DNA from: a virus
Taxonomy: Duplodnaviria; Heunggongvirae; Uroviricota; Caudoviricetes
Virus record (IMG/VR): IMGVR_UViG_2778261244_000002
Span: 1 to 20,849 of that record
DNA length: 20,849 bases
Direction: 5' to 3' (one strand)
A model generated the notes under the pieces. The model did not search any database. It was not told the DNA's origin and was given only the letters and a program-made list of their open reading frames with translations. Both the position numbers and the translations under genes were made by a program. The first letter of the stretch is position 1. Each line of letters starts with the position of its first letter. Shown here in pieces: positions 1-8,131 of the stretch.

Positions 1-1053
1 TTACGGGGTAATGCCAACCGCTGCCGCCACTTTGTCGCCACTTGGCAGCGTTGCCAGAGGATTGAAACGGAGCGCCGTTTCCAGATGATCCGGTGCCAGA
101 TGTGCGTAACGCATAGTCATTTTTATATCGTGGTGTCCGAGAATTTTTTGTAAGGCCAGAATGTTTCCACCCGACATCATGAAGTGCGCCGCAAACGTAT
201 GGCGCAGAACGTGTGTGAGTTGACCGCGAGGGAGCACGATAGACGTTTTTTCCATCACGGATAAAAATTGAAAATAGCAGTCTGTGAAGAAATTGAACCC
301 ATCAAGCGCCATGATCTCTTCGTAAAGCTCTTTACTGATAGGGATGCTTCTGTTTTTCTTCCCCTTCGTTCTTACAAAGGTAATTCGGTATTTGGTCACC
401 TGTGAACGAGTAAGATTTACGGCTTCTCGCCAGCGTGCGCCTGTGCTTAAGCATATCTTAACTACCAGTGCCAGAATTGGGTCCTGACGTTTGCAATCAG
501 CCAGTAATTCAACAATCTGCTCATGGGTAAGCCATGCCATCTCTTTTTCTGCGATGGTGAATTTTCGCATGTTCTCCAGTGGGTTCGGATACGACCATTC
601 GCCCAGGCGGGATAGTTCGCTAAAAACACTACTTAGATAGCTTTGCTCCAGGTTGATGGTGACCGGGCTTGCTCCTTTCTTCCATTTCTCGCTGAAGTAG
701 ATCTCACCTGTCAGGCGTTTATCTCGATAGTGGGCAAACATTTTAGAGGTTAGATCAGTTGCAAGGGGATTGCCCAGAGCGTCAACCATCAGCAGCAATT
801 TGTCATAGACATGCTGCCCAGCTGTCAGTGATTTACCATGTAGTTTGAACCATAGCTCAACCACGTCTTTCAGGGTTCGACGATCCACTGATTCGCCCAG
901 CCAGGGCTTTGATTCGGTTTCTTCCATCGTGTGACGCTCAAAAGCCAGAGCTTCGCCTTTGGTGGCGAATTGTTTACGCACACGACGCCCACTTCGTCCG
1001 GCGGGGTAACATTCGCAAAGCCATTTCCCTGTGGTGAGTTTTCGTACTGCCAT
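1..1053 (-). CDS. int: Phage integrase, tyrosine recombinase (P2 Int-like)
   Basis: Translation carries the C-terminal tyrosine-recombinase motifs (HVLRHTFAAHFMMSGGNILALQKILGHHDIKMTMRYAHL) and overall resembles P2 Int. Start chosen at the internal ATG 1051-1053 (MAVRKLTTGKW...), preceded by a GGAGGG RBS; the track ORF reaching 1209 is judged an upstream over-extension. Stop at 1-3. Confidence 0.9.
   Translation of the reverse strand: MAVRKLTTGKWLCECYPAGRSGRRVRKQFATKGEALAFERHTMEETESKPWLGESVDRRTLKDVVELWFKLHGKSLTAGQHVYDKLLLMVDALGNPLATDLTSKMFAHYRDKRLTGEIYFSEKWKKGASPVTINLEQSYLSSVFSELSRLGEWSYPNPLENMRKFTIAEKEMAWLTHEQIVELLADCKRQDPILALVVKICLSTGARWREAVNLTRSQVTKYRITFVRTKGKKNRSIPISKELYEEIMALDGFNFFTDCYFQFLSVMEKTSIVLPRGQLTHVLRHTFAAHFMMSGGNILALQKILGHHDIKMTMRYAHLAPDHLETALRFNPLATLPSGDKVAAAVGITP
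20..41 (+). repeat. Candidate att core (attL copy) inside the 3' end of int
   Basis: Partner of the 17995-18016 repeat; lies within the last codons of int. Confidence 0.5.
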
Positions 1054-1084
1054 AAAAAATGCCCTCCAGTAGAGAGCATTTTTA

Positions 1085-1100
1085 CTGTATATATAACCAG
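1085..1100. promoter_or_regulatory. Candidate LexA box upstream of int
   Basis: CTGTATATATAACCAG (CTGT-N8-CCAG, AT-rich spacer) 32-47 nt upstream of the int ATG; one mismatch to the CTGT-N8-ACAG consensus. Confidence 0.35.
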
Positions 1101-1241
1101 TGTCAATGTATGAAATCCTACGACCATACATCTCACTGAAGCCATAATGAAGTTGGCTATTCTTTTTGCTATGTGAGCATGTAACTTTTGCGGTTAACCT
1201 GCGGCTCATTTTTATTTTAGACGCAGATATAAAAGCAAAAG

Positions 1242-1433
1242 TTATCGTGAGTTTTTAGTACAGATTTTTTTGGATTTACTAATAGTTCCATCATTGCAAA
1301 CGAATTTGCCATCTGAGGTACAGTGAGAAACACCTCCCTTTTTCCCTGAGCAGGGATAATTTCTAGCATAGGTAGTTAGTGGGTTTAATAACAAAGAACA
1401 TGACAAAACCACAAAAAATACCTTACCAAGCAT
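1242..1433 (-). CDS. Small secreted cysteine-rich, lysine-rich protein (63 aa), moron between cI and int
   Basis: Strong RBS (GGGAGGAAACTATG on the minus strand). N-terminal hydrophobic signal-peptide-like segment ([23 protein letters not shown]) followed by a 40-aa Lys-rich region with 4 Cys. Same orientation as cI and int with a 15-nt gap to the cI stop. Region looks AT-rich by eye. Confidence 0.6.
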
Positions 1434-1448
1434 AGTTTCCTCCCGGTA

Positions 1449-2105
1449 CTATTTAACATACTTGACTGTTAAACTTATAATTTTACCAATTATTTCAATG
1501 TCTTCTATCTTGCATTCGAAGGCTCTGTTTCCACCCTCGACGAAGATTCTTCCACCGGGTAAACGAGTAATGTCACGGATCGTTATTTCGCCATCAATAC
1601 TTATTACCCATTTACCATCACGTATATCATCAAATTCTTTATCACAAATAAATTCAGAATTGTTATCTGTGATGACAAAAGGTTTTTTAAACGTAGAGGG
1701 TAGAAATCCCTTATCAAAAATATAAAAACCGTCTTTCTGCAATGCTCCATCAGACAATAAATATTTTTCTACTTCTATAGTATTTGTATTTGCTGATGCT
1801 TGCTTTGAACCATGCCCTGTTGTTAGCCAATTAAGCGAGGTGCCCGTTTCAAGGGCGCACTGGATTACCCAATCTGCTGGAAAAATATCACGCATATAGC
1901 GCGTTGCCATGGTGCTCTTAGAAACACCTAAATGATCACAGAGAGCCTGACGGGTACCGAACCCATATGCTTCAACTAAACGTTCTATGGCTTTCTTACC
2001 GCCGCTATTGAAATCCACAAGTCCTCCAAAGAAATCCAAAATTCGTTGACAGATTCCAAAAGCGATCTTAAAGTTGAGCCAGAAGTGTTCTTTTGGAGCC
2101 TTCAC
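1449..2105 (-). CDS. cI: 186-type CI immunity repressor (HTH N-terminal domain)
   Basis: N-terminal segment (ERLVEAYGFGTRQALCDHLGVSKSTMATRYMRD...CALETGTSLNWLTTGHG) resembles 186 CI. Divergent from the apl/cII operon and upstream of int. The first in-frame start is GTG at 2103-2105; the true start is uncertain (internal GTG or TTG possible). Confidence 0.8.
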   Translation of the reverse strand: MKAPKEHFWLNFKIAFGICQRILDFFGGLVDFNSGGKKAIERLVEAYGFGTRQALCDHLGVSKSTMATRYMRDIFPADWVIQCALETGTSLNWLTTGHGSKQASANTNTIEVEKYLLSDGALQKDGFYIFDKGFLPSTFKKPFVITDNNSEFICDKEFDDIRDGKWVISIDGEITIRDITRLPGGRIFVEGGNRAFECKIEDIEIIGKIISLTVKYVK

Positions 2106-2431: not shown

Positions 2432-2941
2432 ATGTTTGATTACCAAGTTTCCAAACATCCACATTTTGATGAAGCCTGTCGTGCATTCGCACTGCGCCAC
2501 AATCTGGTGCAACTGGCAGAACGTGCTGGCATGAATGTGCAGATTCTGCGGAACAAGCTGAACCCATCTCAACCTCATTTATTAACCGCACCAGAAATCT
2601 GGCTGCTTACCGATCTGACAGAAGATTCAACGCTGGTAGATGGTTTTCTGGCACAGATTCACTGCCTGCCATGTGTACCGATTAATGAGGTTGCAAAAGA
2701 GAAACTGCCGCATTACGTCATGAGCGCAACTGCAGAGATTGGACGTGTTGCAGCAGGTGCGGTATCTGGTGATGTAAAAACTAGTGCCGGTCGTCGTGAT
2801 GCTATCAGCAGCATTAACTCTGTAACACGACTGATGGCGCTGGCTGCTGTTTCATTGCAGGCCCGTTTACAGGCTAATCCTGCGATGGCGAGTGCAGTTG
2901 ATACCGTGACTGGCCTCGGTGCTTCATTCGGTTTGCTGTGA
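2432..2941 (+). CDS. cII: 186 CII-like lysogeny-establishment transcriptional activator
   Basis: Translation from [24 protein letters not shown]... is recalled as near-identical to 186 CII and gives the same 169-aa length; the ATG at 2432 is preferred over the track start at 2423. Confidence 0.85.
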
Positions 2942-2948
2942 GGTGCTT

Positions 2949-3149
2949 ATGCTGACGAAAGAACCATCATTTGCATCGCTGCTGGTAAAACAAAGCCCGG
3001 CAATGCACTACGGTCACGGCTGGATCATGGGTGAGGATGGTAAACGCTGGCATCCGTGCCGTTCACAAGATGAATTGCTGGCAGAACTATCTACGAAAAA
3101 ACGGGGGAACAAATGGCTATTGAAGGCGCTGCGGCTACTGTTCCATTAA
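2949..3149 (+). CDS. Hypothetical early protein (position of 186 fil/dhr region)
   Basis: ATG at 2949 preceded by a GAGGTG RBS; identity not recognised, only positional analogy. Confidence 0.5.
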   Translation: MLTKEPSFASLLVKQSPAMHYGHGWIMGEDGKRWHPCRSQDELLAELSTKKRGNKWLLKALRLLFH

Positions 3150-5135: not shown

Positions 5136-7546
5136 GTCATGACGATATGAGCAACTCTAGCGGCTTTAACGAGGCCGCTGCAGCATTTTCATGGAACGGC
5201 CCGAAAAAGGCCATTAACCCTTATCTGGACCCGGCGGAAGTTGCTCCGGAGTCTGCACTTTTAAACCTGATCACTCTGTACGCTGCCGATAATGAGCAGG
5301 AACAGCTGCGCCGCGATGCACTGAGTGAGCAGGTCTGGGAGCGTTATTTCTTTAATGAATCTCGTGATCCTGTCCAGCGCGAAATGGAGCAGGATAAGCT
5401 CATTAGCCGGGCAAAGCTAGCGCATGAACAGCAGCGTTTTAACCCGGACATGGTCATTCTGGCGGACGTCAGCGCCCAGCCCACCCATATTAGCAAGCCG
5501 CTGATGCAACGTATCGAATACTTCAGCAGCCTGGGCAGGCCAAAGGCTTATTCCCGCTATTTGCGTGAGACGATTAAGCCATGTCTGGAGCGACTGGATT
5601 GTGTACGTGACAGTCAGCTGTCTGCTTCTTTCCGTTTTATGGCAAGCCATCAAGGGCTGGAGGGCCTGCTGATTCTGCCTGAAATGAGTCAGGATCAGGT
5701 GAAACGCCTGTCCACCCTGGTAGCTGCGCATATGAGCATGTGCCTTGATGCAGCTTGTGGCGATTTGTATGCCACCGATGACGTTAAGCCAGAAGAAATC
5801 CGCAAGACATGGGAAAAGGTGGCGGCGGAAACCCTGCGTCTGGATGTCATCCCACCTGCGTTTGAGCAACTCCGTCGGAAAAGAAACCGCCGTAAACCCG
5901 TGCCCTATGAACTCATTCCGGGTTCGCTGGCGCGTATGTTGTGCGCCGACTGGTGGTATCGGAAATTATGGAAGATGCGTTGCGAATGGCGGGAAGAGCA
6001 GTTGCGTGCTGTCTGCCTGGTCAGCAAAAAAGCATCTCCCTATGTCAGCTATGAAGCCGTGATGCATAAACGTGAGCAGCGCCGTAAGTCGCTGGAGTTT
6101 TTCCGTTCTCATGAACTGGTGAACGAAGACGGCGACACGCTGGACATGGAGGATGTGGTAAACGCCAGCAGCAGCAACCCTGCGCATCGCCGCAATGAGA
6201 TGATGGCCTGTGTTAAAGGTCTGGAGCTTATCGCGGAAATGCGCGGTGACTGCGCCGTTTTCTACACTATCACCTGTCCGTCACGTTTCCATTCCACGCT
6301 CAACAACGGCAGACCCAACCCGACCTGGACAAATGCGACGGTAAGACAAAGCAGCGATTATATGGTCGGCATGTTTGCTGCATTTCGTAAGGCAATGCAC
6401 AAAACCGGGTTGCGCTGGTATGGCGTGCGGGTGGCTGAGCCGCACCATGACGGTACTGTGCACTGGCATCTCATGTGCTTCATGCGTAAAAAAGACCGCC
6501 GCGCCATCACTGCATTACTGCGTAAGTTTGCCATCCGTGTAGACCGCGAGGAGCTGGGCAACAACACGGGGCCACGCTTTAAGTCTGAGCTGATTAACCC
6601 GCGCAAAGGAACACCGACAAGCTACATCGCGAAATACATCAGTAAGAACATTGACGGGCGTGGTCTGGCTGGCGAGATCAGCAAGGAAACGGGTAAATCC
6701 CTGCGTGATAACGCCGAATACGTTAATGCCTGGGCGTCTCTGCATCGTGTTCAGCAGTTCCGCTTCTTTGGTATTCCGGGACGTCAGGCTTACCGTGAAC
6801 TTCGCTTGCTGGCTGGTCAGGCGGCAAGGCAACAGGGTGACAAAAAAGCAGGTGCGCCGATACTGGATGACCCGCGCCTTGATGCCATCCTGGCTGCTGC
6901 TGATGCTGGTTGTTTTGCCACCTACATCATGAAGCAGGGCGGCGTACTGGTTCCCCGTAAATATCACCTTATCAGAACCGCTTATGAAATCAACGAAGAG
7001 CCGACCGCCTATGGCGATCACGGCATTCGTATTTATGGCATCTGGTCACCCATTGCAGAGGGCAAGATCTGCACTCATGCAGTGAAGTGGAAAATGGTTC
7101 GTAAGGCCGTTGACGTTCAGGAGGCGGTAGCCGACCAGGGCGCTTGCGCCCCTTGGACTCGTGGCAATAACTGTCCCCTTGCTGAAAATTTGAACCAACA
7201 AGGGAAAGACAAATCAGCTGATGGGGACTCCAGAACGGATATTACCCGTATGAATGACAAGGAGTTGCATGATTACCTGCACAGTATGAGCAAAAAAGAG
7301 CGCCGGGAACTGGCTGCAAGGTTACGCCAGGTGAAACCGAAACGGCGTAAAGACTACAAACAGCGAATTACAGACCATCAGCGACAGCAGCTCGTCTATG
7401 AACTGAAGTCCAGGGGATTTGATGGCAGCGAGAAAGAAGTCGATTTGCTCCTTCGCGGCGGCAGTATTCCGTCAGGAGCAGGCCTGCGTATCTTCTATCG
7501 GAACCAGCGTCTGAAGGAAGATGATAAGTGGCGGAACCTATATTAA
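5132..7546 (+). CDS. A: Rolling-circle replication initiation endonuclease (P2 gpA-like)
   Basis: 804-aa protein with an HUH-type motif ([13 protein letters not shown]) and a tyrosine-containing YIAKYISK segment; lies between the early genes and the accessory region as in P2/186. Confidence 0.9.
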
Positions 7547-7613: not shown

Positions 7614-7660
7614 GTTTTACATCAGTAAGATTATTATATACTGTAAATATAAACAGTGGT
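7614..7660 (+). promoter_or_regulatory. SOS promoter with LexA box (CTGT-N8-ACAG at 7641-7656)
   Basis: TTTACA (-35-like) then TATACT overlapping CTGTAAATATAAACAG, a perfect CTGT-N8-ACAG LexA box about 45 nt upstream of the 7699 ATG. Confidence 0.7.
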
Positions 7661-7698: not shown

Positions 7699-7887
7699 AT
7701 GCAGGACTATTTTTTGGAGTCTTTGAAGCTCCAGCGCATTGATTTTTTTCTTAAGCTTGTAGCGGCTAGTGAGTGTAGTGATGAAGAGAAGGGGCTGGCT
7801 CTGCAGTGGGTTTCTGAATTGACTGATGAACTCATGGCAAAAATCAGAAGCCACGAATACAACCGCTCAATGGATGTCATCAGCTGA
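7699..7887 (+). CDS. Tum-like (antirepressor N-terminal part?) small protein, LexA-regulated
   Basis: Strong AGGAGG RBS; immediately downstream of the LexA box and 10 nt upstream of the DinI-like gene. Functional call is positional analogy to the 186 tum operon. Confidence 0.55.
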   Translation: MQDYFLESLKLQRIDFFLKLVAASECSDEEKGLALQWVSELTDELMAKIRSHEYNRSMDVIS

Positions 7888-7897
7888 GGTGACTTTT

Positions 7898-8131
7898 ATG
7901 CGCATTGAAATAATGATCGATAAAGAGCAGAAGATTAGCCAGTCTACCCTGGACGCCCTTGAATCCGAGCTTTACCGCAATCTGCGCCCCCTGTATCCCA
8001 AAACGGTAATTCGCATTCGCAAAGGTAGCTCTAACGGTGTGGAACTAACCGGACTGCAACTGGATGAAGAAAGAAAACAAGTGATGAAAATTATGCAGAA
8101 GGTGTGGGAGGACGACAGCTGGCTGCATTAA
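7898..8131 (+). CDS. dinI: DinI-family protein
   Basis: MRIEIMIDKEQKISQSTLDALESELYRNL...MKIMQKVWEDDSW aligns by eye with E. coli DinI (MRIEVTIAK...ALAGELSRR...ILQETWESADDW); GAGGTG RBS. Confidence 0.8.
   Translation: MRIEIMIDKEQKISQSTLDALESELYRNLRPLYPKTVIRIRKGSSNGVELTGLQLDEERKQVMKIMQKVWEDDSWLH

Follow-up and report, generated by a model that had tools for sequence, protein, structure and literature searches.

Why should a temperate phage of the 186 type carry, between its repressor gene cI and its integrase gene int, a 63-codon open reading frame (ORF) that phages P2 and 186 lack? The question arose from an initial annotation of a 20,849-nucleotide stretch of a Caudoviricetes genome (IMG/VR record IMGVR_UViG_2778261244_000002, positions 1 to 20,849; the whole stretch is called the window below), in which this ORF was proposed, from the letters alone, to be a lysogenic-conversion gene, or moron, encoding a secreted Cys-rich mini-protein. 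We find that the ORF is a genuine gene of the catalogued YdcA family. As a whole, the explanation that we prefer, namely a prophage moron whose product is an exported YdcA mini-protein with a role at the level of the envelope, is held with little better than even confidence, and its parts are of unequal strength.

A YdcA-family gene directly behind cI

The gene occupies positions 1242–1433 on the minus strand (63 codons plus stop). Its ATG, at 1433, is preceded at a distance of 5 nt by a ribosome-binding site (RBS) that can be read directly from the sequence (GGGAGG, 1439–1444, minus strand), and is separated by exactly 15 nt from the stop codon (TAG, 1449–1451) of a 186-type cI repressor gene (1449–2018, minus strand; Pfam Phage_CI_repr and Phage_CI_C). 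A further 188 nt separate the YdcA stop from the start of the tyrosine integrase gene int (1–1053, minus strand; Pfam Int_N and Phage_integrase), which lies downstream in the same orientation and whose ATG, at 1053, has GGAGG before it. The placement just past cI and upstream of int, as well as the strong RBS, had thus been described correctly. On the opposite strand, the neighbours are an Apl/Cox-like gene and CII (Pfam). The window cI product is 33% identical to 186 CI, and the site of the prophage in E. coli is adjacent to rcdA. The region had also been called AT-rich, which it is (GC 0.34–0.36 over 1101–1500, versus 0.44–0.52 across most of int, bases 1–1000), and the low GC extends over cI as well (0.29–0.39).

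Homology search, one of the checks proposed at the outset, placed the protein in a conserved family. Its match to the NCBIfam model NF007463 (PRK10040.1-2; residues 5–63, model positions 1–58 of 58) reaches 115.8 bits (E 5.3e-34), above the curated whole-protein cutoff of 93 bits, and it also matches PHROG 6000 (E 1.9e-34); an identical RefSeq protein, WP_000900883.1, is named ‘YdcA family protein’ in E. coli prophages beside rcdA. The PRK10040 models for the YdcA family in NCBIfam are NF007462, NF007463 and NF007464. The 57-position model NF007462, presumed to represent YdcA of K-12, gives only 68.5 bits for the window protein, below the cutoff of 118. The protein shares with the family the length class, the signal peptide and the four-Cys motif; it differs in being prophage-borne, encoded behind cI and classified under NF007463. 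Precomputed annotation assigns PF27300.1 to nearly all homologues and to P0001, the cluster representative, which is 98% identical; a local Pfam scan of the 63-aa protein returned no YdcA/PF27300 match and one sub-threshold chance match, and the model may post-date the local copy. A weak match to the NCBIfam lpg1681 model was also recorded (E 0.11). The initial annotation missed this family membership, together with the copies in core chromosomes, plasmids and phage tail modules that are described below.

The four-Cys motif, PCSGxKGG[VI]xHC...F[VI]CxDGxxSxSKKxC, is present directly behind the signal peptide, and its invariant or near-invariant columns are P27, C28, S29, G30, K31, K32, G33, G34, C38, F44, C46, D48, G49, S52, S54, K55 and C58. 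Compared with the 93%-identical E. coli B allele, the gene shows 11 synonymous differences and a single non-synonymous one (dN/dS 0.02); the comparison with an allele of 69% identity is saturated at synonymous sites and gives a dN of 0.046 for the mature domain and of 0.79 for the signal peptide. The ORF is a genuine coding gene under strong purifying selection, a spurious ORF being excluded by the dN/dS value. An overlapping 50-aa ORF at 1217–1369 was discounted, because the substitutions follow the YdcA reading frame.

The gene is widespread. Of 5426 complete E. coli genomes, 631 contain a 337-bp cassette (1112–1448), derivatives of E. coli B being among them, and the family falls into 1595 clusters when grouped at 90% identity and is covered by 450 representatives at 50%. 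A YdcA relative is present on 491 viral contigs; the 80 loci listed for these all correspond to the same E. coli prophage and so bring in no diversity. One UniRef cluster bears the name ‘Conjugal transfer protein’, which we treated as an unreliable automatic annotation; no tra/trb or mating-pair gene was seen among the annotated neighbours in a 10-kb stretch of one Acinetobacter plasmid.

Predicted export and the mature domain

The N-terminus had been described as signal-peptide-like and the mature part as Lys-rich with four cysteines, and both descriptions hold. Residues 1–23 (MLGK ... NPLTTYA; 1365–1433, minus strand) form a predicted Sec signal peptide with a predicted signal peptidase I (SPase I) cut after T-Y-A. 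The prediction is rule-based (K/R in the n-region, a hydrophobic h-region and small residues at −3/−1), and the window protein agrees with these Sec/SPase I rules through K4, a Kyte–Doolittle 10-residue mean of up to 2.7 and T-Y-A before R24. All three features occur together in 219 of the 239 full-length family members, with Ala as the −1 residue in 192 and the conserved Pro-Cys following the site by 2–3 residues. In an alignment of 27 diverse homologues, the presequence (approx. 23 residues) is variable, although it always keeps its basic n-region, its hydrophobic core and a site of the A-x-A type, whereas the approximately 33 residues past it are near-invariant, basic and contain the four Cys; the median start of the domain is residue 25 (249 proteins).

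The predicted mature peptide (residues 24–63; 1245–1364, minus strand), which by the family alignment contains the near-invariant domain, is 40 aa long, with 7 Lys and 2 Arg against 2 Asp (net charge +7, pI 9.7, approx. 4.3 kDa). It holds C28, C38, C46 and C58; the fifth Cys of the protein, C12, belongs to the presequence. A net positive charge is found in 97% of 235 unique domains of the family. An AlphaFold2 model has a mean pLDDT of 77.8, with 88–91 over residues 31–50, the core of the domain. From these features we infer a product that is soluble, resides in the periplasm and measures about 4.3 kDa, predicted to start at R24 and to have its four Cys available for two disulfides.

A different fate, in which the protein would be an outer-membrane lipoprotein lipidated at C12 with VVLSC (residues 8–12) as its lipobox, could be imagined, since V-L-S-C is loosely lipobox-like and the UniRef entry of one Yersinia homologue is named ‘Lipoprotein’. 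It is rejected as highly improbable because C12 is not conserved in the family; moreover, a strict lipobox ([LVI][ASTVI][GAS]C) occurs in just 3 of 239 presequences, merely six h-region residues precede C12, and a canonical A-x-A-type site comes later, at residues 21–23.

The cI–int slot in related phages

The initial annotation suggested that P2 and 186 have no gene at this place, and this proved to be accurate. The cI and int genes of phage 186 meet at nt 22433, which leaves the slot empty, and the cI–int gap of P2 is 115 nt long with no annotated gene. Among relatives, the content of the slot differs. Prophages of the window type carry YdcA alone, whereas other 186-like prophages of E. coli carry YdcA together with a 443-aa KAP P-loop NTPase (PADLOC PDC-S20, E 1e-171), phage vB_EcoM-813R9 carries a 558-aa ATPase (PD-Lambda-1, E 3e-120) and no YdcA, and Klebsiella phage 4LV2017 carries a 350-aa hypothetical protein; in one E. 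coli prophage, the YdcA copy is disrupted by IS5. The slot cargo is located at 5198–6529 of locus L086, 1642–2973 of L100 and 3576–5252 of L104. Because the content of the slot varies in this way among relatives, and the gene is absent from 186 and P2, the moron placement is upheld, and the ORF is well supported as an accessory gene of a 186-like E. coli prophage. Since its cargo matches PDC-S20 or PD-Lambda-1, the cI–int slot of related E. coli 186-like prophages behaves, furthermore, as a hotspot for defence genes. The window YdcA protein itself matched none of the families of PADLOC-DB 2.0. A defence hotspot between cI and int has been reported in K139-like Vibrio phages by Rousset et al. 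(PMC9122126), and in a 2026 census the stretch from integrase to primase accounted for 8% of the defence systems of P2 (PMC13586616).

The association of YdcA with cI extends beyond E. coli. In Haemophilus phage HP2 (NC_003315), an unannotated 60-aa YdcA gene was detected at 2920–3102, and another in phage S2; the HP2 copy is a gene missed by the reference annotation. The stop codon of cI and its ATG overlap (TAATG); orf1 comes next, after 9 nt, and is followed by int. A cI-adjacent YdcA therefore recurs in two distant lineages of Peduoviridae. Between the two types of E. coli prophage, cI (66% identity) and YdcA (69%) have diverged in parallel, which suggests that their linkage is long-standing and does not result from a recent insertion.

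Likeness to Glo and to other envelope morons

The closest positional precedent is Glo of Vibrio cholerae phage K139, annotated in NC_003313 as ‘periplasmic protein; involved in phage exclusion’ and encoded between cI and int (this annotation and Nesper et al. 1999, J Bacteriol 181:2902, as cited in PMC3952083). Like the predicted window product, Glo is a small soluble periplasmic protein with a signal peptide, cleavable in its case, and its gene, in a phage of the P2 family (Peduoviridae), belongs to the lysogenic operon, where it stands between cI and int. Unlike YdcA, however, Glo is 137 aa long and not Cys-rich, and no sign of homology was obtained by hhalign (probability 1%, with just 5 signal-peptide columns aligned).

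Several other phages encode small proteins, exported or membrane-borne, by which the envelope is altered or other phages are kept from entering, such as Sp and Imm of T4, Sim of P1, gp15 of HK97, Cor of phi80 and Bor and Lom of lambda. These are unrelated to YdcA in sequence and are mostly membrane-anchored proteins or lipoproteins, whereas YdcA is a predicted soluble 4-kDa disulfide domain. An overview of superinfection exclusion (Sie) is given in PMC3952083.

Other genomic contexts, nuclease fusions and Dis2

Outside the cI–int slot, the family occupies a variety of contexts. In the Mcat phages of Moraxella and in the Vieuvirus phages of Acinetobacter, YdcA lies in the tail module, which is another classic moron position, upstream of a large gene annotated as ‘tail protein’ or hypothetical and presumed, by its size, to encode the tape measure. 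In Moraxella, YdcA is followed within 9–15 nt by the gene for a partner of about 220 aa with an N-terminal membrane anchor; the pair is shared by a chromosomal locus (L094, 5001–5884) and phage Mcat15 (L097, 3438–4264), at 38% identity (E 1e-36), and may represent a two-gene cassette. No homology was found between HP2 orf1 and this partner. Core-chromosome copies surrounded by no phage genes occur in Moraxellaceae, and plasmid copies in Acinetobacter, Rhizobium and Citrobacter. In the Citrobacter plasmid NZ_CP053574 (L106, 4926–5327), the YdcA-domain gene belongs to a type VI secretion system (T6SS) cluster, where it comes after tssE and is flanked by a gene for a GIY-YIG nuclease and one for a VasL-domain protein.

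The domain is also found in longer proteins. Among the 52 family representatives of at least 110 aa, nucleases are the only enzymatic fusion partners, and they belong to three unrelated folds (Endonuclease_NS, in four to five cases, SNase and PLDc_2); in these fusions the YdcA domain always stands directly behind the signal peptide. One more fusion joins it to T6SS VasL (nuclease or VasL fusions: P0212, P0242, P0266, P0105, P0122, P0176 and P0260), and tandem proteins with two or three YdcA domains exist as well (P0149–P0153).

Only one solved structure is related in sequence to YdcA, that of Dis2 (Lpg0823), from the Legionella Dot/Icm machine, a type IV secretion system (T4SS). Dis2 is the top PDB match of the full-length profile (E 4.7e-5) and still ranks first with a profile of the mature part only (E 1.4e-3); it is also the top Foldseek match of the AlphaFold2 model, though with an E-value of 0.6, the probability given by hhalign for the pair is 77%, and a Dis2 orthologue is annotated with PF27300. 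A phmmer search of PDB with tandem-domain members gave no match for P0152 and an E-value of 0.037 for P0150. The YdcA domain is thus probably homologous to one lobe of Dis2. Dis2 carries five disulfide bonds and was observed as part of a complex in the periplasm (PMC8486379). It resembles YdcA in having a signal peptide, and is disulfide-bonded, periplasmic and near the outer membrane; it differs in being a two-lobed, stoichiometric T4SS component with five disulfides, whereas the window protein would correspond to one lobe with four mature Cys. No T4SS gene was noted among the window ORFs examined, which are P2/186-type phage genes. Taken together, the link to Dis2, the nuclease fusions and the conserved positive charge suggest that the YdcA domain is a small, basic module that serves for docking in the periplasm, on a target that is anionic or close to the outer membrane; this could be DNA, LPS, phospholipid or a trans-envelope machine.

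Proposed role and competing explanations

Our preferred explanation would operate as follows. Transcribed with cI from the lysogenic promoters, YdcA would be made continuously in lysogens; its 23-residue presequence would route it through Sec and be cut off after T-Y-A, and the basic mature peptide of about 4.3 kDa would form two disulfides in the periplasm. It would then dock on an anionic or outer-membrane-proximal structure of the envelope, a step proposed because the probable homologue Dis2 is located in the Dot/Icm outer-membrane cap and the domain is attached to periplasmic nucleases. An incoming phage would finally be blocked at or after adsorption, in a manner analogous to that of the unrelated Glo of K139. 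Envelope-level protection of the lysogen, similar to superinfection exclusion, is accordingly our first-ranked consequence, put forward tentatively and with well below even confidence: it is placed first because the other cargo of the slot consists of defence genes, because K139 Glo provides a positional precedent and because YdcA recurs as a moron in several temperate phages. Against it, neighbouring defence genes amount to guilt by association only, YdcA is not in PADLOC, and the copies in core chromosomes without phage genes argue for a general envelope function over a dedicated anti-phage one.

These chromosomal copies, which are found in Moraxellaceae, fit better with a host-fitness factor in the sense of lysogenic conversion, acting under envelope or acid stress, the prophage simply supplying an extra constitutive copy of a housekeeping periplasmic protein, which would raise tolerance to acids or organic acids or stabilize the envelope, without any role between phages. 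The mature domain is, indeed, almost identical in phage and chromosomal copies, and the sole experimental data on a member of the family, E. coli ydcA, concern stress: its deletion in E. coli W causes sensitivity to 300 mM 3-hydroxypropionate, and it is reported to be acid-induced under YdcI (PMC7642389). However, this phenotype comes from another subfamily, as the below-cutoff score of the window protein on NF007462, presumed to be the K-12 type, would indicate, and the slot is otherwise filled by defence genes; we regard the stress-factor explanation as doubtful.

The nuclease fusions open another route, in which YdcA would be a periplasmic mini-protein binding DNA or other polyanions (LPS, phospholipid head groups), the free domain sequestering or blocking DNA in the periplasm during transformation, conjugation or phage ejection, or else competing with nucleases that carry this domain too. 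That Endonuclease_NS, SNase and PLDc_2 are its sole enzymatic partners among the long members is consistent with this proposal, as are the GIY-YIG nuclease gene adjoining YdcA in the T6SS cluster, the positive charge of nearly all domains and the presence of phage copies in Haemophilus, Moraxella and Acinetobacter. These three genera are naturally competent. The same fusions could nevertheless equally mean that the nuclease is anchored to the envelope, phage DNA is normally shielded during ejection, and natural competence is not ordinarily seen in E. coli; a polyanion-binding role is considered unlikely.

Finally, a small cationic peptide (+7) that is predicted to be disulfide-bonded recalls many antimicrobial peptides, and in Pseudomonas protegens a YdcA-family gene has been listed, with no mechanism given, as one of the loci linked to antimicrobial activity (PMC13541209). 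A bacteriocin secreted against competitors would nonetheless be very surprising here: the Sec signal delivers the product to the periplasm only, the neighbours are cI and int with no adjacent exporter, immunity or lysis gene, and chromosomal single-copy members lack immunity partners.

Beyond the exclusion role that we rank first, a broader and distinctly doubtful possibility is that the YdcA/Dis2 domain is a hitherto unrecognized periplasmic docking module, binding DNA or an anionic component of the envelope, reused by T4SS, by T6SS loci and by secreted nucleases, and captured by phages as a new Sie family. If so, the free-standing domain would have been captured repeatedly by temperate phages of several genera and wired to the repressor transcript, a soluble periplasmic factor for superinfection exclusion or for blocking DNA entry would be present in approximately 12% of complete E. 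coli genomes, and a first functional handle would be gained on both E. coli ydcA and Legionella Dis2.

Precedents and significance

The gene, the YdcA family and the logic of its position, that is, a moron for a periplasmic protein in the cI–int slot, are all precedented. In the literature searched, we did not find described the probable Dis2 link, the nuclease fusions, the HP2 gene, the defence-gene company of the slot or the predicted LexA-box promoter of int (see below), and searches on the family identifiers returned no functional description. The gene is nevertheless very common in E. coli and extremely conserved. It is also experimentally approachable: it stands behind cI in a slot filled elsewhere by validated or candidate defence genes, it is a probable relative of an orphan structural component of Dot/Icm, and its domain is repeatedly fused to periplasmic nucleases. 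Should it prove to be an exclusion or envelope factor, a soluble periplasmic class would be added to prophage-encoded protection and the annotation of about 1,600 protein clusters would be assisted; should it have no phenotype, it would be an ordinary uncharacterized moron.

Transcription of the cI–int region and LexA boxes

The initial annotation saw a single lysogeny operon running from cI through the ORF to int. The anatomy of its first half stands: the ORF lies directly behind cI, and a consensus scan revealed neither a promoter nor a terminator on the minus strand between the two. The second half is only partly right, because int appears to have a LexA-box promoter of its own. Indeed, a promoter-like sequence facing int (TTGACA-17-AAAAAT, 1078–1106, minus strand; consensus scan) contains, between its hexamers, a LexA-type box CTG-N10-CAG, CTGgttatatataCAG (1085–1100), about 25 nt upstream of the int RBS. 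E. coli B shows this arrangement upstream of int as well, as do the relatives with KAP or PD-Lambda-1 cargo and Klebsiella phage 4LV2017 (loci L102, L100, L086, L104 and, for Klebsiella, L005), and in two of these CTG-N10-CAG is retained while its flanks have diverged; phage 186, whose cI and int abut or overlap, lacks the arrangement. As this predicted promoter is conserved upstream of int, the integrase gene may form a separate SOS-inducible unit in the phage group of the window, with the cargo slot placed between the cI transcript and the int promoter.

Directly past the YdcA stop, folding indicated an imperfect long stem-loop in the 3′ UTR (1182–1240, minus strand); the fold of the segment 1107–1250 reaches −36.2 kcal/mol (z −3.5). 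A canonical intrinsic terminator was rejected for this structure, because it has no U-tract and comparison with the E. coli B allele shows no compensatory substitutions that would preserve its pairs. An Rfam search of 900–2400 gave nothing close to significance.

A second strong LexA box (CTGTAAATATAAACAG / TACTGTAAATATAAACAGTG) was observed elsewhere in the window, at 7641–7656, just before a GGAGG RBS and small ORFs at 7699–7887 and 7826–8131; this part of the window probably corresponds to the tum-like SOS antirepressor region known from phages of the 186 type.
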